NCBI GenBank assembly: GCA_964016885.1
Contig: OZ024742.1
Coordinates: forward strand, 74,772,001 to 74,836,000
Source: Eledone cirrhosa
Lineage: Eukaryota
Direction of reading: 5' to 3'
DNA: 64,000 nucleotides
The notes beneath the pieces were generated by a model that worked only from the letters and a program-made list of their open reading frames with translations, searched no databases and was not told the origin of the DNA. Shown one piece after another: positions 4,713-60,647 of the stretch (within the stretch, counting starts at the first letter, position 1; each line of letters opens with the position of its first letter). The translations under genes and the position numbers were made by a program.

Positions 4713-4852
4713 TGTATATATATATATATGAATATAGACATAGAATATTCGAAAATATTCTGTATGTTTATAATAAACATTTTGAAGACCTAATCGCTAT
4801 AGAATAGAATACGTCACGTATTACAATTAGATTCTCGATAAAAGCAAGGGAA

Positions 4853-4895
4853 GTAATCTACGCGTTTCATTCTCGTTAGAAATCATCAGGACTAC
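4853..4895 (-). ncRNA. Type I hammerhead ribozyme (first of 7 minus-strand copies, repeating every 310 bp to 6713-6755)
   Basis: Reverse complement reads gtagtc-CTGATGA-tttct aacg agaat-GAAA-cgcg-TA-gattac. Stem I is extended by a 16-bp helix 4831-4846/4904-4919. Confidence 0.9.
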
Positions 4896-7098
4896 ATATC
4901 CAGTGCTTTTATCGAGAATGACACAGCTAGAGACTTATAGAATACTTAGCTGTGTACAGGAACTGGTTTGAAAGAGCGGTTGCCGGTCCGGCAGAAATTA
5001 GAAATTGGAATAAATGCTCTGAAATAGCGATATATATGTGAATATAGACATAGAATATTCGAAAATATTCTGTATGTTTATAATAAACATTTTGAAGACC
5101 TAATCGCTATAGAATAGAATACGTCACGTATTACAATTAGATTCTCGATAAAAGCAAGGGAAGTAATCTACGCGTTTCATTCTCGTTAGAAATCATCAGG
5201 ACTACATATCCAGTGCTTTTATCGAGAATGACACAGCTAGAGACTTATAGAATACTTAGCTGTGTACAGGAACTGGTTTGAAAGAGCGGTTGCCGGTCCG
5301 GCAGAAATTAGAAATTGGAATAAATGCTCTGAAATAGCGATATATATGTGAATATAGACATAGAATATTCGAAAATATTCTGTATGTTTATAATAAACAT
5401 TTTGAAGACCTAATCGCTATAGAATAGAATACGTCACGTATTACAATTAGATTCTCGATAAAAGCAAGGGAAGTAATCTACGCGTTTCATTCTCGTTAGA
5501 AATCATCAGGACTACATATCCAGTGCTTTTATCGAGAATGACACAGCTAGAGACTTATAGAATACTTAGCTGTGTACAGGAACTGGTTTGAAAGAGCGGT
5601 TGCAGGTCCGGCAGAAATTAGAAATTGGAATAAATGCTCTGAAATAGCGATATATATGTGAATATAGACATAGAATATTCGAAAATATTCTGTATGTTTA
5701 TAATAAACATTTTGAAGACCTAATCGCTATAGAATAGAATACGTCACGTATTACAATTAGATTCTCGATAAAAGCAAGGGAAGTAATCTACGCGTTTCAT
5801 TCTCGTTAGAAATCATCAGGACTACATATCCAGTGCTTTTATCGAGAATGACACAGCTAGAGACTTATAGAATACTTAGCTGTGTACAGGAACTGGTTTG
5901 AAAGAGCGGTTGCCGGTCCGGCAGAAATTAGAAATTGGAATAAATGCTCTGAAATAGCGATATATATGTGAATATAGACATAGAATATTCGAAAATATTC
6001 TGTATGTTTATAATAAACATTTTGAAGACCTAATCGCTATAGAATAGAATACGTCACGTATTACAATTAGATTCTCGATAAAAGCAAGGGAAGTAATCTA
6101 CGCGTTTCATTCTCGTTAGAAATCATCAAGACTACATATCCAGTGCTTTTATCGAGAATGACACAGCTAGAGACTTATAGAATACTTAGCTGTGTACAGG
6201 AACTGGTTTGAAAGAGCGGTTGCCGGTCCGGCAGAAATTAGAAATTGGAATAAATGCTCTGAAATAGCGATATATATGTGAATATAGACATAGAATATTC
6301 GAAAATATTCTGTATGTTTATAATAAACATTTTGAAGACCTAATCGCTATAGAATAGAATACGTCACGTATTACAATTAGATTCTCGATAAAAGCAAGGG
6401 AAGTAATCTACGCGTTTCATTCTCGTTAGAAATCATCAGGACTACATATCCAGTGCTTTTATCGAGAATGACACAGCTAGAGACTTATAGAATACTTAGC
6501 TGTGTACAGGAACTGGTTTGAAAGAGCGGTTGCCGGTCCGGCAGAAATTAGAAATTGGAATAAATGCTCTGAAATAGCGATATATATGTGAATATAGACA
6601 TAGAATATTCGAAAATATTCTGTATGTTTATAATAAACATTTTGAAGACCTAATCGCTATAGAATAGAATACGTCACGTATTACAATTAGATTCTCGATA
6701 AAAGCAAGGGAAGTAATCTACGCGTTTCATTCTCGTTAGAAATCATCAGGACTACATATCCAGTGCTTTTATCGAGAATGACACAGCTAGAGACTTATAG
6801 AATACTTAGCTGTGTACAGGAACTGGTTTGAAAGAGCGGTTGCCGGTCCGGCAGAAATTAGAAATTGGAATAAATGCTCTGAAATAGCGATATATATGTG
6901 AATATAGACATAGAATATTCGAAAATATTCTGTATGTTTATAATAAACATTTTGAAGACCTAATCGCTATAGAATAGAATTTATTCCAATTTCTAATTTC
7001 TGCCGGACCGGCAACCGCTCTTTCAAACCAGTTCCTGTACACAGCTAAGTATTCTATAAGTCTCTAGCTGTGTCATTCTCGATAAAAGCACTGGATAT

Positions 7099-7141
7099 GT
7101 AGTCCTGATGATTTCTAACGAGAATGAAACGCGTAGATTAC
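7099..7141 (+). ncRNA. Type I hammerhead ribozyme (first of 7 plus-strand copies, repeating every 310 bp to 8959-9001)
   Basis: gtagtc CTGATGA tttctaacgagaat GAAA cgcg TA gattac; palindromic stem III ACGCGT, GUA cleavage triplet. Confidence 0.9.
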
Positions 7142-9154
7142 TTCCCTTGCTTTTATCGAGAATCTAATTGTAATACGTGACGTATTCTATTCTATAGCGA
7201 TTAGGTCTTCAAAATGTTTATTATAAACATACAGAATATTTTCGAATATTCTATGTCTATATTCACATATATATCGCTATTTCAGAGCATTTATTCCAAT
7301 TTCTAATTTCTGCCGGACCGGCAACCGCTCTTTCAAACCAGTTCCTGTACACAGCTAAGTATTCTATAAGTCTCTAGCTGTGTCATTCTCGATAAAAGCA
7401 CTGGATATGTAGTCCTGATGATTTCTAACGAGAATGAAACGCGTAGATTACTTCCCTTGCTTTTATCGAGAATCTAATTGTAATACGTGACGTATTCTAT
7501 TCTATAGCGATTAGGTCTTCAAAATGTTTATTATAAACATACAGAATATTTTCGAATATTCTATGTCTATATTCACATATATATCGCTATTTCAGAGCAT
7601 TTATTCCAATTTCTAATTTCTGCCGGACCGGCAACCGCTCTTTCAAACCAGTTCCTGTACACAGCTAAGTATTCTATAAGTCTCTAGCTGTGTCATTCTC
7701 GATAAAAGCACTGGATATGTAGTCCTGATGATTTCTAACGAGAATGAAACGCGTAGATTACTTCCCTTGCTTTTATCGAGAATCTAATTGTAATACGTGA
7801 CGTATTCTATTCTATAGCGATTAGGTCTTCAAAATGTTTATTATAAACATACAGAATATTTTCGAATATTCTATGTCTATATTCACATATATATCGCTAT
7901 TTCAGAGCATTTATTCCAATTTCTAATTTCTGCCGGACCGGCAACCGCTCTTTCAAACCAGTTCCTGTACACAGCTAAGTATTCTATAAGTCTCTAGCTG
8001 TGTCATTCTCGATAAAAGCACTGGATATGTAGTCCTGATGATTTCTAACGAGAATGAAACGCGTAGATTACTTCCCTTGCTTTTATCGAGAATCTAATTG
8101 TAATACGTGACGTATTCTATTCTATAGCGATTAGGTCTTCAAAATGTTTATTATAAACATACAGAATATTTTCGAATATTCTATGTCTATATTCACATAT
8201 ATATCGCTATTTCAGAGCATTTATTCCAATTTCTAATTTCTGCCGGACCGGCAACCGCTCTTTCAAACCAGTTCCTGTACACAGCTAAGTATTCTATAAG
8301 TCTCTAGCTGTGTCATTCTCGATAAAAGCACTGGATATGTAGTCCTGATGATTTCTAACGAGAATGAAACGCGTAGATTACTTCCCTTGCTTTTATCGAG
8401 AATCTAATTGTAATACGTGACGTATTCTATTCTATAGCGATTAGGTCTTCAAAATGTTTATTATAAACATACAGAATATTTTCGAATATTCTATGTCTAT
8501 ATTCACATATATATCGCTATTTCAGAGCATTTATTCCAATTTCTAATTTCTGCCGGACCGGCAACCGCTCTTTCAAACCAGTTCCTGTACACAGCTAAGT
8601 ATTCTATAAGTCTCTAGCTGTGTCATTCTCGATAAAAGCACTGGATATGTAGTCCTGATGATTTCTAACGAGAATGAAACGCGTAGATTACTTCCCTTGC
8701 TTTTATCGAGAATCTAATTGTAATACGTGACGTATTCTATTCTATAGCGATTAGGTCTTCAAAATGTTTATTATAAACATACAGAATATTTTCGAATATT
8801 CTATGTCTATATTCACATATATATCGCTATTTCAGAGCATTTATTCCAATTTCTAATTTCTGCCGGACCGGCAACCGCTCTTTCAAACCAGTTCCTGTAC
8901 ACAGCTAAGTATTCTATAAGTCTCTAGCTGTGTCATTCTCGATAAAAGCACTGGATATGTAGTCCTGATGATTTCTAACGAGAATGAAACGCGTAGATTA
9001 CTTCCCTTGCTTTTATCGAGAATCTAATTGTAATACGTGACGTATTCTATTCTATAGCGATTAGGTCTTCAAAATGTTTATTATAAACATACAGAATATT
9101 TTCGAATATTCTATGTCTATATTCACATATATATCGCTATTTCAGAGCATTTAT

Positions 9155-9216
<62 letters not shown>

Positions 9217-9409: not shown

Positions 9410-10221
<812 letters not shown>

Positions 10222-10333
10222 TAAAATAACAGATTAAAGTTTAAGCAAAGAATCGCTGCTTTCACTCTTAACGGGATCTTCTGAAACTAACAAAGTCAAT
10301 CTGTAAACGCAGAACTGGATATTTAAAAAAACG

Positions 10334-10990
10334 TTGCAACCGGAGGTGGCCACACCATTAGCTAAGATCTTTCTTTCCCTTATTACGAAGCATTTTCCCC
10401 CTACACATAAATATAGTAAAATTTTTAATAGAAATACTATTAAAATTTCTTACTCTACGACTCCTAACCTTGCACGTAACATCACAGCTTCAAATTTAGC
10501 TAAACTACCTAGCCGTAGGAACACGTGCAACCCTGTAGTTAGTACTAACTGTAATTGTAGGAATCGGGCAGATTGTCCCCTATCCGGGAAATACCTCTCT
10601 AGTAACATTGTCTACAAATGTAAGGTTGTAACACTCACGTCCCGTAGGGCCTACATAGGGTTAACCGCCAATAGTTTCAAGCAGCGTCTTTACATGCATA
10701 CCCATTCTTTTCGTTACCCTCTAAGAAGGAATATGACGTCACTTTCAGCTTATATCTGGAGTCTAAAAGACAACCACACCCAATATAAGTTACACTGGGA
10801 GATCCTAGCTAGGGCTAGATCGTATAACGGAAATAAAAGACCATGTGACCTCTGCGCCGCTGAGGCCCTGGAAATACTCTACGCCACAGACAACATCTTA
10901 AACAAAAAATCTGAGGCAATTTCGGCTTGTAAACATAAATTGCACAAAATTTTCCTGTATTACAGCCCCACATTATACCCTAAGGGATAG
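10334..10990 (+). CDS. PLE C-terminal GIY-YIG endonuclease fragment
   Basis: KIFNRNTIKISYS..CNCRNRADCPLSG..NIVYKC..AYIGLTANSFKQRLYMH..TSLSAYIWSLK..CDLCAAE..LNKKSE. Confidence 0.88.
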   Translation: MQPEVATPLAKIFLSLITKHFPPTHKYSKIFNRNTIKISYSTTPNLARNITASNLAKLPSRRNTCNPVVSTNCNCRNRADCPLSGKYLSSNIVYKCKVVTLTSRRAYIGLTANSFKQRLYMHTHSFRYPLRRNMTSLSAYIWSLKDNHTQYKLHWEILARARSYNGNKRPCDLCAAEALEILYATDNILNKKSEAISACKHKLHKIFLYYSPTLYPKG

Positions 10991-11920
10991 CACGATCTAT
11001 ACGTGGATATTTTACGTCTTGATGTGGTAGCTAAGTATGTGTTTTATTTATTCCTTTACTTATTTGCATAGGTAAGTATATATTACCCGTATGTTTTGTG
11101 AAGGTATGTATACCTTCTCGTACGTATATTTGACTGTTATGGCGTATAATCTTTACATATTCTGGTATTTAGGGTTTGGCTATGTGTATACGGGAGTTTT
11201 GCGTCTGCGTGAGTATGCAGGTTCGTACGTATGGTGGGTGTGTGTATATGTGTACTTCTTGTTTTAGTTGACTTACGTCTCCGAACATTCGTGTATTTAT
11301 TTGTAGGTATGTGTGTGCGCTTGTTATATACGTATTTATTTACTTATATACGTTTATATAATTATTTATTTATTTGTACACAAGCATACACACACACACA
11401 CATATTTATATGTGCGTGGTTTTGTATACCTATGGTAAGGTTTTGCGTATGCTTGCGTATGTACGTATCTGTTTGCGTGTATGTGTTTATTTGTTTCTAT
11501 TACTTCTGTATTGTATTTATTTACTTTGTTCTTAACTCTGTAGCGGAGATTCATTTGGTCTCCTAGTTAGAATTTTAGTCTACAACTTCTGCTATACCAT
11601 TTATGTGGGTTTGTCTTTGCGTGCTATTGTTCTCCACGCTCCACATATGACTTATTATCTTCGTTTTTTCGTTCATTGCCAGAGAACGTCTCTATGCACC
11701 ACCTAAGAGAACATTAGTCTACGACCTCTTTTATACCATAAACGTGGTTCTGTCTTTGCGCGTAATTGTTTTTCACCGCTCCTATAAATGACGTATTATT
11801 CGTTTTTTCCCGTTCTTTGCCAGCGAACGTTTCCACGAACCAAAGTATCGTCTTCCTGTCTTCCTCCGGTTGCAACGTTTTTTGAAATATCCAGTTCTGC
11901 GTTTACAGATTGACTTTGTT

Positions 11921-11971
11921 AGTTTCAGAAGATCCCGTTAAGGGTGAAAGCAGCGATTCTTTGCTTAAACT
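11921..11971 (+). ncRNA. Hammerhead-like motif with CAGAAGA (U4A) core
   Basis: agttt-CAGAAGA-tccc gttaa gggt-GAAA-gca gcgattctt tgc-TT-aaact; all three stems pair. Minus-strand copies at ~9654-9704 and ~10238-10288. Confidence 0.6.
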
Positions 11972-12102
11972 TTAATCTGTTATTTTAATAAATATTTGCT
12001 CTTCGGTTCTTATATATTTGATATATATTTTCCTTATCGAGCCCTCTTTGGATTTTAGTCTTCAATTTTATTATTATTACTATATATATATATATACATA
12101 TC

Positions 12103-13498: not shown

Positions 13499-14019
13499 AT
13501 ATATATATATATAAGTATTAAGTTGTTAAACAATATTCGATGATTATGTCAAAGAATGAGTTTTACAGTAGATTGGAATCACTCAACGGAAAATAATTTT
13601 CAGGAGTTATTAATATTAAAATATAAGTATTAATAAAATAGATGTTCTTTTGATCAATTACATTTTATTATACATATTTCGGATGTACAACAGTACGTCC
13701 TCATCAGACAAAATATAATGATACATGACATACCCTGAGATGTTAAATGGTTAAGATTTAATCAAGCTAGTGATTACCCGATAGAAAATTTTGCTCATAT
13801 AATATTTGTGTGAGAGTGCGAAAACGCAATGAATTCATTAGAGAATGTGTGGATAAGAAAAAAACGCTGCATACTTAAAGTGTTCTAAAATTTTAAATTG
13901 TATGATACTATATTTAGGGAAACGTCTCATGAATCATAACAGCCAGTGATAGCCACTGGAAAAAGATTTATAAGGAGGGAAAGATAAAGTGTGGAAAACT
14001 ATAGAACAGACAAACTCTT

Positions 14020-16110
14020 TTATTAGAAGATTAAGATAGGGAGCTTTTCATTTCGAAAATAAAGATGCTGAAAGAAAAACCAACAATAATCAGTTTGAAT
14101 CTTTGTTTAAATCAAGAAAAAATCCTCCATACAACAAACTCCCGGAGGTATTTGAAACAGAAATGCTCGGCATAATCAAAAATATTAAATTTATGATAAA
14201 CCCATATATAGGTCACCAATACCTCAGATCTCTAAAAGATAAAATCACTGAAATAAAAAATGTTAACAAAGTATTGGTTAAATCTGACAAAACTAATAAT
14301 TTATATGGGATAAGCAATGACGAATATAACGACCTGATCCTGAAAGAACTTAGGAAAAATTACAAAAAAGCCCCGGCTGATGATCTTACTGAAATTAATG
14401 AAGAAGCTTATAATTTAATTACCAATCTAGGAATACAAGAAAGTACTGAGCCATTCTTACCTAGACAGCCGAGGATTAACCTGAAGGATTATAAAAGAAA
14501 CTTTAAGGAAGAAATGCCAGTTAAACTGATTGCTCCATCGAAATCGGATATAGGAGTAATCAGTAAAAACATCATAGATAGAATATTACCCACTCTTAAA
14601 TTGAGATCTAGTTTCAGCTTATGGAAAGATACAAACGATGTCATTGAATGGTACAAAAACATTGAAGATAAGAAAAACTATAAATTCATCCAGATGGTAA
14701 TTACTAACTACTATTCTTCTATAACACCTGAACTTCTAAATAAGGCCCTCTCATATGCTTATAAGCATACTGATCTAACCACAAATGGAATAGATATAAT
14801 TTTAACAGCTAGAAGAACTCTCATTAAATTCAATAACGAACTTTGGACACGCTCAGATAGAGAAAGAAACTTTGATATCACTATGGGGGCATCTGATTCC
14901 GCGCAAATCACAGATCTTCTGGGAATTTTCATATTAAACATAGAAAACTGCCGGAGATTACCGGTGGTTTATATATAGATGACATTTTATTTACGGTGCT
15001 CAAACACAATAATATAGAATTAAATAGAGTTAAGAAAAGTATAATAAAATTCTTTAAAACGTACGACCTTAAATTAGAAGTAGAAAATGGTACCAAAATA
15101 GTTAATTTCCTTGACGTTACCTTTAACTTAAACACTGGCTTCTCTTACCCTTTTCATAAGCCTAATGAAAATTTAAACTATGTTAGTAACTATTCAAATC
15201 ACGCTAGATCTGTAAAAAGAAGCTATAGTAAATAGTGTGCAAAAACGTATTAATAAAATATCAGCTAATAAAAATATATTTGATAAAAATGCGGAATATT
15301 ACAACAACGCTTTAAAAAGAGAAGGATATATGAATAATATAGAATATGTAGATAATAACAATCCAAGTATTATTCCTAATAATAATAATAAAAATTATAA
15401 AACATATAAGACTAACTATAATAACTATAACTCAAACACACATACGCTAAATAAATCGAGAATACGAACTAGATCTACACCAGTCATATGGTTTGCACCC
15501 CAGCGTCGGTCGCAGTTAAAACACCAATTGCAAAACTATTCTTTAAAGCTCTTGACACCTCTTTCCCTACTCAACATAAATACCATTCCATTTTTAATAG
15601 ACATACCATTAAATTCGGAAATTCTACAACCAGTAACATGGCCCAAAACATCGCCAAATTAAACGTCAAAATCCTAAAACCAAACCAACATAATGATCAT
15701 AATAATAGAGTTAACATTAATGATACTAAACCAAATTGTAATTGTAGAAATATAAGTACTTGCCCTTTGCAAAATAATTGTTTAGATAGTAATTTGGTTT
15801 ATAAATGCACTGTAAAAACTGACCATAAAACATACAATTACATTGTATCAACCTCGTCCACATTCAAACTTCGTTTCGCGAACCATAAATGCTCATTCTC
15901 GAACTCTAAGAAGAAATCATCCACGTCTTTATCACAACTCATATGGTCTTTAAAAGAGAAGAACCTGGAATACTCCATTCTTTGGACAAAACTTCGGAAC
16001 TGTCGAATTTACCGCACTCTAGTATATCAAATAACTGCCCGCTCTGTACAATGGAGACCCTGTTGATTATTAATAATTATGAGACCTTAATTAACAAAAA
16101 AGTGAATTAT
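14020..16110 (+). pseudogene. PLE RT-GIY-YIG polyprotein, frameshifted
   Basis: KSDKTNNLY, FDITMGASDSAQITDLLG, GLYIDDIL (~14964-14987), VNFLDVTFNL, CNCRNISTCPLQNNCL..LVYKC; split over ORFs starting at 14103, 14996, 15237 and 15488. Confidence 0.9.
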
Positions 16111-17671
16111 TCTCTAATTCCCTCCCTAAAGCTATGTCCACTTTTTCAGCCTCACATAAAACGAGAAAGAAAGAACCAATAACAACTCGGTTACCATGAA
16201 TATATAATCAACAGTAAAAAACATCAATGGCCTTTAATATTGCTTTATTTTATGGATATCTATGGAAAAAACAACGTTAGAATGAATGACAATATTTCAA
16301 TTAGCATGCCTAAACATTGATACACACAATTTTATTTGTTAACTTTGATCAACACCCTCATTTATCTATAATTTAGTACAATACCTAATCCTTACATATC
16401 TATTGAATTTATTTAACTATGAATTTTTAATACATTTGTAATCTCTTTTAAATTTTAGTTTTAATACCCAATCCAAAAAATATTTACGAAACTTATCTAT
16501 AACTCCAAATGTTTAATGACCTTTTGATCTATTATTTATAGTATAATATAGCATATACTTCTTTTAAATATACTTACTGCACTATAATATCTAAATTTGA
16601 GACGGATTCAAACTTATATATAAATGTGAATTTTTTCGCTGTACTTTCGATCTCTTATTTATTTATTTATTTATTTATAATATAATGTTTTATAATATAT
16701 ATGTAGTTATATAATGTATTTTATATATTTTTAAATATTTTTAAATATACCTACCATACTTCTATATACATGATTCAAATATAGAGAAAATATCTAAACT
16801 AAAAAATTATTATAGACATTATTTTGAATTTTATACATGCACTCATTGTTCGTTTTTCTTATATGTATATATATATTTAGATGTAACACGTTGTTAAGAG
16901 TATAACTGTTATCATTTACCTAAAGTATACTACATTAATAATACCTAATATATATCTATATGTATACATCCCTATATCTAATAATACGTTGATATCTTGG
17001 TTATACATATCTATAAATTTTATCTGTAACATATTATTTTATTTTATTTTTACCTTATACATTCTGACTCATTAATATATACCTATATATATAATAGTTA
17101 TTCAAATATTTATAACAATAAGTACTTCAAAAGATTTACATACATAATATGTTGAGATATTTGTTAAAGTTTAGATTTAGGTAATTAATCAACAGTATAA
17201 TATTTCATTCTTTACGTGCCAGCTAAATCCTTTAAAATGTTATTCTCACAATTTAGAAGTTTAGAAATGATAACACACTTATCGAATTTATATAAATAAT
17301 ATATAAATAAATAGCAAATAATCCTGAAATCCGGAGTCTTTGCATTAATATTATAAATTAAATATTTCCAAATTCTAACCGTTTAACTTTCGACCCCCGC
17401 CCACTTTATCTTTCCCTCCTTATAAATCTTTTTCCAGTGGCTATCACTGGCTGTTATGATTCATGAGACGTTTCCCTAGATATAGTATCATACAATTTAA
17501 AATTTTAGAACACTTTAAGTATGCAACGTTTTTTCTTACTCACACATTCTCTAATGAATTCATTACGTTTTCGCACTCTCACACAAATATTATATAAGCA
17601 AAATTTCCTATCGGGTAATCACTACCTTGATTAAATCTTAACCATTTAACATCTCAGGGTATGTCATGTAT

Positions 17672-17731
17672 CATTATATTTTGTCTGATGAGGACGTACT
17701 GTTGTATATCCGAAATATGTATAATAAAATG
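17672..17731 (+). ncRNA. Hammerhead ribozyme motif in PLE pLTR (mirror copy on minus strand ~13661-13720)
   Basis: CTGATGA (17685-17691)-ggacgtac tgtt gtatatcc-GAAA-tatg-TA; stem I pairing is imperfect. Confidence 0.6.
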
Positions 17732-17770
17732 TAATTGATCAAAAGAACATCTATTTTATTAATACTTATA

Positions 17771-17852
<82 letters not shown>

Positions 17853-33227: not shown

Positions 33228-33351
<124 letters not shown>

Positions 33352-33354
33352 ATG

Positions 33355-33385
<31 letters not shown>

Positions 33386-33391
<6 letters not shown>

Positions 33392-33961
33392 ATAAATGCT
33401 CTGAAATAGCGATATATATGTGAATATAGACATAGAATATTCGAAAATATTCTGTATGTTTATAATAAACATTTTGAAGACCTAATCGCTATAGAATAGA
33501 ATACGTCACGTATTACAATTAGATTCTCGATAAAAGCAAGGGAAGTAAGTCTACGCGTTTCATTCTTGTTAGAATTCATCAGGACTACATATCCAGTGCT
33601 TTTATCGAGAATGGCACAGCTAGAGACTTATAGAATACTTAGCTGTGTACAGGAACTGGTTTGAAAGAGCGGTTGCCGGTCCGGCAGAAATTAGAAATTG
33701 GAATAAATGCTCTGAAATAGCGATATATATGTGAATATAGACATAGAATATTCGAAAATATTCTGTGCCATTCTCGATAAAAGCACTGGATATGTAGTCC
33801 TGATGAATTCTAACAAGAATGAAACGCGTAGACTTACTTCCCTTGCTTTTATCGAGAATCTAATTGTAATACGTGACGTATTCTATTCTATAGCGATTAG
33901 GTCTTCAAAATGTTTATTATAAACATACAGAATATTTTCGAATATTCTATGTCTATATTCA
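33386..33961. mobile_element. Short fold-back copy of the 310-bp HHR family
   Basis: About 1.2 units forward to 33766, then ~0.6 unit inverted (ctgt microhomology at 33763-33766). HHRs at 33545-33588 (-) and 33794-33837 (+). Confidence 0.9.
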
Positions 33962-34071
33962 TATATATATATATATATATTTGTGTATATATATATATGT
34001 GGGTGTATATATATATATATTTGTGTATATATATATATATGTGGGTGTATATATATATATATATTCTATCA

Positions 34072-59180: not shown

Positions 59181-60647
59181 TTTTGATTTCATTGTGTTTT
59201 TGCAGAAAACATGTGTATGGCGATGCGTTGAAGTTTGCCAAGGTTCTGATGAAACTAGGAATTAAAAAAAGAGAGAAAATTACATATTGTGTTCCCAACT
59301 GTGTGGAATGAATGAGCTGCGACATTGGAATCATGATGACGGGGGCATATTCTATGAGATTAATGTTTGGATTGGCAAATATGAAATCTGTTTTAGAAGG
59401 ATGTAGTGTAGTTGTATTTGGTTCGAAATTTATTTGTGATAGTTTTCTGTCTATTGCAGAGATAAACGATAACGGAAAGATATCTAGTAGCGCCTGCCCT
59501 AATTTAAGAATAGCTATTGATGTCTCCAGCACATACAGACCACCCAATGCTTTATCTGCTGCTAAGTTAATGGCAGAAATATGTGATGATGATACAATTG
59601 AATTTCCTTACATTGATCCAGAGGACAATGCAACAACCATTCTGACTTCCGGTACTACTGGTGTATTTGTCAGCCATTTTCATTATCTAAACATACCAGA
59701 TGTAGGTTTATATGATGGTAATATTTCTAGTTCTGTTATCGTATTTAGCAAACGCCCAATGGGATATATTGGAGGATATCCTATGTCATTGTTATCTGGA
59801 GGAGTATCGGGTGATGTAAAAATGTTGAATGATGCGAATAACTTAGATTTTCTCATAAATATATGGCAACAAGAAAAATGTACTATGGTTAGAGTTGCAC
59901 CACAGGACTTGAGTTGCCCACAACTTAGCAATCACGAATTCCGTGTAAATAAGTAATGTGAGGCGGGGATACTCTTACACGGAATGCAGTAGAGCATTCT
60001 TTTAAAATTGCAGACTAGTTCATAATGGGTTATGGTAGTACTGAGGCTTTGCCTATATCATATAGCATTTTTACTCCAGAAAATATTTCAGAACATCAAC
60101 AGAGAATGTTGGGTCGACCAATTAAAGGTGCAGAAATTAAAATTGCAGACGACAAGAAAAGAGTTGTATAAATTGGAAAACCGGGTCATTTGTATTTTCG
60201 AAGTAAGTGGACAACAAATCAATTTCTGGATGGTACATCATGCCTAGAAAATGGATGGTATCCAACATCAGATATTTGTTACTTAACAAAAGATGGCGAT
60301 CTTATCATGGTTGGAAGAAGTACAGACTTTATTAAAAAGTGTACAGTAAGGTTATCAATTACACTAATTGAAGATTATGTCGGACGTCACTCGAATATAG
60401 AAGCAGTGGTTGTCGTAGCAATTCCAGACAAGGATGTTGGTGAACGTGTGTGTGCATGTGTTACTGTATTACCTGATCAGGAGTTCAATGAAGATAAATT
60501 AAAGAAGTTCTGTGCAGAAACAATGCCACAACCAACCAACTTTGATTCTGCATCCTGATTATATAGTATATTTTCCTTGTTTTCCACTTTGGCTAGTGGC
60601 AAGTGTGACAGAAAAACTATAACAGCTTTGGCCATTAAAAAGGTAAA
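59181..60647 (+). pseudogene. Intronless acyl-CoA synthetase / AMP-binding (ANL) pseudogene
   Basis: TILTSGTTG (truncated P-loop), GYGSTE (~60028-60045), GWYPTSDI, VGRSTDFIK, VVAIPDKDVGERVCACV; stops and frameshifts between ORFs starting at 59312 and 60190. Confidence 0.85.

Follow-up and report, generated by a model that had tools for sequence, protein, structure and literature searches.

Complementary long and short ends in a putative two-armed retrozyme family, probably primed by a PLE enzyme on one RNA

A 310-nt unit carrying a type I hammerhead motif is arranged in this genome as elements of two opposed arms, whose outer ends are, wherever both are seen, one long and one short. We propose that this putative retrozyme was inserted as two opposed arms, likely by a PLE enzyme priming on both sides of one cut and copying one RNA, a reading to which we give, from sequence comparisons, a probability of roughly 0.7.

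Two copies of the unit in the window

The window, i.e. the whole stretch of 64,000 nt analysed here, is AT-rich, with many microsatellites and retroelement fragments, and belongs to a source assembly of 3.0 Gb (G000). The 310-bp unit is present in it twice, as a 576-nt small copy and as a 4.4-kb big array, with units of 310 or 311 nt. Positions within the unit are numbered R1 to R310 on the hammerhead-sense strand (RNA sense). The two copies are composed as follows:

4729..6980, minus strand: left arm of the big array, 7.3 units, short outer end R275
6979..9160, plus strand: right arm of the big array, 7.0 units, long outer end, tail at 9126-9160
33270..33385, no strand: (TA)n target, left flank of the small copy, seen in the sequence
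33386..33766, minus strand: left arm of the small copy (RNA sense on this strand), 381 nt, 1.2 units, long outer end R310
33386..33420, minus strand: 35-nt tail R276-R310, only at the left outer end of the small copy
33763..33766, no strand: inner junction of the small copy, between two truncated 5' ends of inverted arms, 4-nt microhomology CTGT
33763..33961, plus strand: right arm of the small copy, 199 nt, R78-R275, outer end short
33962..34064, no strand: (TA)n-rich target, right flank of the small copy, seen in the sequence

The arms of the big array are opposed and overlap by 2 nt, and its left arm has single-unit variants at 5604 and 6129 without a mirror in the right arm. The original observation was that the small copy reuses the two outer termini of the big array, about 35 nt apart, and this is borne out: both copies end at R275 (..gtctatattca) and R310 (..ttattccaat), 35 nt apart, and each of these ends abuts (TA)n. 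The sides are swapped, the short end lying on the left in the big array and on the right in the small copy.

Compared with the array unit, the small copy shows four differences (R83 T>C, R122 T>A, R130 G>A and an additional C at R148), all of which are found in both arms, as had been noticed for its variants. Judged by eye, R122A changes a U.U into an A-U pair at the base of helix II, the C added at R148 changes a G.U into a G-C pair in helix I at the price of one bulged U, and R130 is located in loop 2.

Elsewhere in the window, a frame at 59312-59956 resembles by eye what we take to be a fragment of an acyl-CoA synthetase/AMP-binding enzyme. Two further inverted-repeat elements, at 9595-12030 and 13608-17784, are arranged around PLE-like ORF fragments in (TA)n, the latter with a hammerhead-like core in each arm, and a GIY-YIG endonuclease fragment at 1530-2216 (PF01541, E 2e-7) is likely the 3' end of another PLE.

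Anatomy of the unit

The structural features of the unit, located here on the small copy, are:

33545..33588, minus strand: type I hammerhead motif of the left arm, CUGAUGA..GAAAC-GC-GUA
33770..33860, plus strand: 16-bp perfect stem closing the hammerhead domain (z -6.3, 0/200 shuffles)
33794..33837, plus strand: type I hammerhead motif of the right arm, CUGAUGA..GAAAC-GC-GUA, predicted cleavage after 33830
33912..33961, plus strand: hairpin given by fold prediction, about R226-R277, its 3' base coinciding with the short end

The full hammerhead core motif is found at 15 of the 16 hammerhead positions of the window, the unmatched one being that of the unit with the 6129 variant. Rfam aligns the hammerhead correctly to HH9, yet with 17.8 bits and an E-value of 0.14, far under the gathering threshold of 52, and at that threshold it yields 0 matches within the window. 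Helix III is reduced to 1 bp around a palindromic CGCG, a design that, according to the available text of PMC4209133, cleaves poorly as a monomer and needs dimers. The 10 array-wide alleles located within the hammerhead avoid the core and, by eye, preserve pairing.

In each arm the hammerhead sense runs towards the outside, which makes both outer ends RNA 3' ends; at the inner junction, two 5'-truncated ends meet. There is no stop-to-stop frame of at least 150 aa over the small copy or the big array, which indicates that the unit is non-coding, and its G+C content is 107/310 (34.5%). A tandem arrangement in units of ~170-400 nt, a GC content below 45-50%, a type I hammerhead motif and no protein coding are all features of metazoan non-LTR retrozymes, and the 310-nt unit has each of them; the ORF with RT and GIY-YIG endonuclease that characterises an autonomous PLE is absent from it. 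As judged from its sequence, the unit acts like a PLE passenger and not like an autonomous PLE, and the element is a putative young non-LTR retrozyme with a Penelope insertion signature.

Outer ends across the genome

In G000, the 24-mer of the tail has 16,661 matches. The long end adjoins (AT)6 at 980 junctions and the short end at 714, compared with 0 for reversed-pattern controls, which shows that the ends shared by the small copy and the array are not due to chance. Extrapolation from contig C1 gives a family of ~1,300-1,900 insertions. A sample was assembled by fetching 133 regions around the first 100 long-end and 76 short-end (AT)6 matches, which lie within the first 284 Mb of contig C1, and to these regions 5 additional loci were added from tail 24-mer matches; the resulting 138 regions and the two window copies, with two duplicates removed, provide 140 elements. 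This sample represents one contig, and 133 of its 138 regions were picked by one end, so that the other end is free of selection. In six cases the parsing script halted at an internal variant and the end was set manually.

Both arms and both ends are seen in 124 of the 140 elements, and every one of these 124 has one long and one short end, 64 in short-long and 60 in long-short orientation, without any pair of like ends. Eleven elements are scored as one-armed (one with a 20-nt second arm, one running into N) and 5 run off their region. The same holds when the end that was free of selection is considered. At the 100 long-picked loci, this end is short in 90 and long in 0, while 5 loci have no clear second arm, 4 run off the region and the remaining one combines a short end with an arm of only 20 nt that has a long end; at the 76 short-picked loci, it is long in 72 and short in 0, with 3 loci devoid of a second arm and 1 off region. 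Furthermore, the 16 loci behind the first 100 tail 24-mer matches, which were not picked by an end, include 13 two-armed elements, all 13 of them long plus short. Such strict complementarity of ends (124/124) implies coupled priming.

The short end is located at R275 in 84 elements, at R276-277 in 32 and at R267-273 in 7 (123 of 124 resolved), and the long end at R308-310 in 94, at R1-R5 in 28 and at R299 in one where the script stopped at a variant (123 of 124 resolved); these are minimal positions, and their modes are inflated by selection. The ends thus form two clusters, the short one at about R271-277 and the long one at R308-R317, with a modal offset of 35 nt. The histogram that had been suggested as a check therefore shows outer ends in two sharp groups, whereas inner junctions are spread widely (see below), and the outer termini are not randomly scattered. 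What stands of the two defined termini initially claimed is two tight clusters across the sample; that they would be two exact bases does not.

Perfect AT alternation over at least 6 nt is present on both sides in 116 of 123 elements, most loci having been picked by one (AT)6 junction. A duplicated interrupted stretch of target is found at 6 loci (12 nt, 14 nt and four of at least 30 nt) against a shuffled mean of 0.34, and target duplication is present in only 3 of the 11 loci that have an (AT)n break near an end. L164 and L168 are insertions in imperfect targets with a 12-14-nt target duplication. The family displays the Penelope insertion signature, i.e. an inverted 5'-truncated arm, a tail of 30-40 bp at one end and a (TA)n or AT-rich target.

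A single template for both arms

The 121 elements of simple structure have 184 variants that every unit of both arms carries, 155 restricted to a single unit and 3 fixed in just one of the arms. Array-wide variants that are private to one sampled locus number 14 (e.g. 3/3 and 19/19 units of the two arms in L045, 11/11 and 14/14 in L101). Arm haplotypes are flagged as discordant in 6 of 96 elements, compared with a mean of 80.8 under random pairing, and, on inspection of the discordant set, L058 is the sole true difference at a common site, L105 differing at a rare one. Array-wide alleles (n=35, unpolarised) include 10 A>G and 6 T>C, counts that bear on a possible A-to-G editing of the template.

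When the two arms are compared inward from their outer ends, they share 115 kb of common register, in which 100 minority variants are unmirrored and 6 unit-specific variants are mirrored, against a chance expectation of 0.016. The latter belong to L069, L078 and L094. In L094, whose arms measure 934 and 5473 nt, one haplotype extends over two units and is then replaced by another in both arms, and the first one never returns in 15 further units. As this change occurs in register in spite of the unequal arms, both arms must have read the same molecule from the same unit. The mirrored variants of these three loci also indicate that some templates are heterogeneous multimers and not a pure monomer circle. 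Haplotype concordance, the 14 private fixed variants and the mirrored variants at three loci all support the view, put forward from the window alone, that both arms derive from one template lineage, with L058 and L105 as exceptions.

The majority of arrays are uniform, as would fit a monomer that is copied by rolling circle. We infer that most inherited changes have probably passed through a monomer bottleneck, as rolling-circle copying predicts, and that a few templates would be heterogeneous multimers. In L045, a minority variant pair recurs 7 units apart within an arm, and in L046 a minority variant recurs in units 1, 3 and 7 of an arm; each case could reflect a multimeric template or a DNA duplication.

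Sequencing runs X4, X5, X7 and X11 contain one 340-nt single-haplotype contig each, closing on the monomer, and X8 contains a 280-nt piece (compared with window positions 7420-7729); two raw Hi-C runs with the same organism code as X7 contain 0 reads of the unit. The closing contigs, from runs with differing organism codes, could correspond to a circular RNA, a tandem array or cross-contamination, and as the latter two would look just like the first, the X4, X5, X7, X8 and X11 contigs are not used as evidence. Among the runs containing the unit, none is recorded as an RNA run.

Inner junctions and arm lengths

The 242 inner ends are distributed over 154 positions, the commonest of which is used 6 times; with 15-36 ends per 31-nt bin, the distribution is not uniform (p 0.004). 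At the predicted cleavage site, no excess is observed among these 242 ends (6 versus 5.5 expected), and the genome therefore offers no direct sign of cutting. Among the 109 resolved inner junctions, 76 are blunt or overlapping and 33 have extra bases or a junction variant; microhomology of at least 3 nt is present in 30 of the 76, compared with 6.6% in the null. Arms have up to 23 units. Their length shows no bias between long-end and short-end arms (p 0.22), and the lengths of the two arms are weakly correlated (rho 0.30), region size limiting the lengths.

Two inner junctions have a particular content, consisting of 272 nt of unrelated sequence in L046 (L046:1451-1722) and of 123 nt of stuttered unit sequence in L158, which suggests template switching at the join.

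PLEs and sister families in the same genome

ORF-bearing PLEs of this genome have a comparable layout. L119, inserted in (TA)n, is an element with RVT_1 and GIY-YIG domains and an inverted arm; its left end is the short one, and its right side extends ~40 nt further. The Hydra-type family C, with 7,717 pattern matches, includes the ORF-bearing L201 (motifs RWR, DKT and CxCX5C), in which L201:630-7620 appears to be a Hydra-type PLE inserted in full, including the inverted arm, with a frameshifted ORF and long and short ends ~68 nt apart. In 11 of 12 examined family C regions with two nearby matches, these are a long and a short end on opposite strands, ~68 nt apart, in regions that were hand-picked and of which the larger may contain separate insertions. 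The hammerhead core of family C is identical to that of the 310-nt unit at 26 of 28 nt, the closest connection to an ORF-bearing PLE among the fetched loci; as its tail differs, family C is at most a candidate driver.

The sister retrozyme family B has a ~320-nt unit with ~65% identity to the 310-nt unit and 2,691 pattern matches (examples: L036:700-1030, L105, L153, L166 and L168, and loci L209-L238). It conserves the long end as well as the region of the hairpin and tail, the equivalent long position being an end in 16 of 30 loci, and a PLE ORF is attached in 0 of 30 loci. Among the fetched loci, including those of families B and C, neither an autonomous PLE with the tail of the 310-nt unit nor a parent pLTR was found.

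Proposed mechanism and alternative explanations

We infer a retrozyme RNA, its cleavage, its circle and its driver enzyme, which could act as follows. Arrays would be transcribed, and the predicted hammerheads, probably as dimers, would cut part of the RNA into monomers that circularise. A PLE RT-endonuclease, probably a dimer, would bind the hairpin/tail region and nick both (TA)n strands, and the two target 3' ends would then prime at two internal positions of one shared RNA, namely the base of the hairpin (R275) and a site 35-42 nt downstream (R310). Both cDNAs would extend 5'-ward, usually along many turns of the monomer circle and sometimes along an uncut multimer, until they halt at scattered points; they would be joined via microhomology or a few added bases, before repair. 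In its most specific form, a PLE dimer loads both RT sites, staggered, on one ribozyme-made circular RNA, each site priming from one cut side for up to ~23 turns per arm, to which we give slightly better than even odds. The initial idea that the ends are set by two RT start sites is in agreement with the two end clusters, which are what this family itself contributes; the start sites are carried over from the published Penelope result (PMC11167929).

The same two-site PLE priming on one RNA could alternatively use, as its usual template, a long linear read-through transcript of a young, uniform array, in which case there would be no circle and the ribozyme would be mostly idle. This rather unlikely possibility accommodates the in-register mirrored variants of L069, L078 and L094, including the absence of the first L094 haplotype from 15 later units, and the inner ends without excess at the cleavage site. 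It is also in line with the available texts reporting that hammerhead cleavage is dispensable for PAc insertion in vitro (PMC11167929) and that monomers with a helix III of 1 bp are poor at cleaving (PMC4209133). However, variants are mostly array-wide (184 fixed and 14 sample-private, over up to 25 units), whereas unit-specific variants are mirrored at 3 loci and 100 are not. As inherited variants are nearly always array-wide, a monomer bottleneck is needed in most cycles. The 10 array-wide hammerhead alleles, which leave the core intact with pairing kept by eye, also speak against an idle ribozyme.

The arms could also have been copied from two RNA molecules and then homogenised by gene conversion within the palindrome. 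Long palindromes are able to undergo conversion, and L058 and L105 have arm-specific alleles. Nevertheless, mirroring tracks the distance from the outer ends, and not from the centre, in elements with unequal arms (1476/1051 nt in L078, 934/5473 nt in L094), and 100 minority variants remain unconverted. Independent priming would moreover produce pairs of like ends in about half of the elements, while 0 of 124 are observed, and we consider two RNA molecules very improbable.

Equally improbable is an origin by DNA-level amplification (extrachromosomal circles, unequal exchange or fold-back replication) or by a LINE-type enzyme with twin priming, in spite of the LINE fragments in the window and of the variant pair repeated 7 units apart in L045, a possible DNA duplication. 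DNA routes yield neither fixed outer ends nor a fixed strand polarity, and poly(A) is absent. The one-sided 35-nt tail is a PLE signature in the available text of PMC11167929 and is seen again on ORF-bearing PLEs of G000. This explanation is already largely refuted by the outer-end histogram.

Finally, that the palindromes would be an assembly or library artefact due to fold-back reads, as multi-kb and near-perfect inverted repeats may evoke, is the least probable of all and was rightly doubted for the large palindrome at the outset, given the 124 loci whose arms are unequal, whose ends are unlike and whose flanks are unique, the 100 minority variants unmirrored in shared register, the ORF-bearing PLEs with the same layout and the short-read contigs of X1, possibly the source sample, which carry the same classes of (AT)n junction as loose ends, 9 contigs having theirs at R284 and 1 contig at R5.

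PLE priming of both sides of one cut on one RNA thus remains our preferred reading. It predicts that every insertion is primed at both of two specified positions, once at each, on a single template that is usually a monomer. If the most specific form described above is true, the long-plus-short rule together with the in-register mirrored variants would prove, at the level of the genome, that a single RNA is reverse-transcribed twice in a coupled manner, and such coupled twin copying would explain retrozyme arrays and the inverted-repeat and tail structure of PLEs alike. Builders of RT-based insertion tools would also be interested in a small circle being copied processively, over many turns, from either end of a cut.

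Comparison with known systems

The family links two open questions in the available literature (PMC7229834, PMC8557442, PMC11167929, 10.64898/2026.07.22.740005), namely how retrozymes return to DNA and how the inverted arms and one-sided tail of Penelope arise. In the available text of their report, Cervera and de la Pena (2020; PMC7229834) demonstrate circular retrozyme RNAs and propose that PLE RTs make tandem cDNA. Li, Clavereau and Pollet (2026; 10.64898/2026.07.22.740005), in the part available, derive a PLE origin from co-occurrence and pLTR homology, ascribe arrays to local amplification and leave the mechanism open. A circRNA template and mobilisation by PLEs are thus already proposed for retrozymes in these two sources. 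Like the metazoan non-LTR retrozymes they describe, the present family has ~300-nt tandem non-coding units of low GC, in thousands of copies with co-occurring PLEs, and one type I hammerhead per unit with a weak palindromic helix III. Unlike published retrozymes, as far as these texts go, it has two opposed arms, fixed alternative ends and one template for both arms, as known here from genomic sequence; the term 'inverted' has 0 matches in the available text of PMC7229834.

On the PLE side, the available text of Craig et al. (2021; PMC8557442) reports PLEs with an inverted truncated copy, a (TA)n bias and a tail of 30-40 bp that is often confined to one end. That of Frangieh et al. (2024; PMC11167929) reports a PLE, predicted to be a dimer, that in vitro cleaves and extends both strands, with RT starting at two internal sites, which delimit the tail, a start site alike on both strands and no need for hammerhead cleavage. 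With these EN+ PLEs, the present family shares, in the terms of both sources, a hammerhead near the 3' end, an inverted 5'-truncated copy, a tail at one end and (TA)n targets; it differs from them by having no ORF and by arms that are multimers of one unit, up to 23 per arm. Whereas the in vitro PLE shows no strand difference in start in the available data (PMC11167929), the ends are here strictly complementary in 124/124 elements. The family also resembles non-autonomous Chlamys PLEs such as MRC1, described in the available text of PMC8557442, in being a putative non-autonomous PLE derivative with multicopy head-to-tail insertions. Unlike these Chlamys elements, whose 3' ends resemble those of their autonomous partners and whose clade is there described as lacking canonical hammerheads, the 310-nt unit has a hammerhead motif.

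The 35-nt offset is the known PLE tail, and the inverted truncated arm, the two RT start sites and the idea of PLE mobilisation are also known. A literature search of limited coverage, in which absence is not proof, returned no description of retrozyme arrays that have two arms and strictly paired ends, nor of evidence for one template. The new part is the strict coupling of one long with one short end, together with the evidence for a single template, including a minority of multimer templates.
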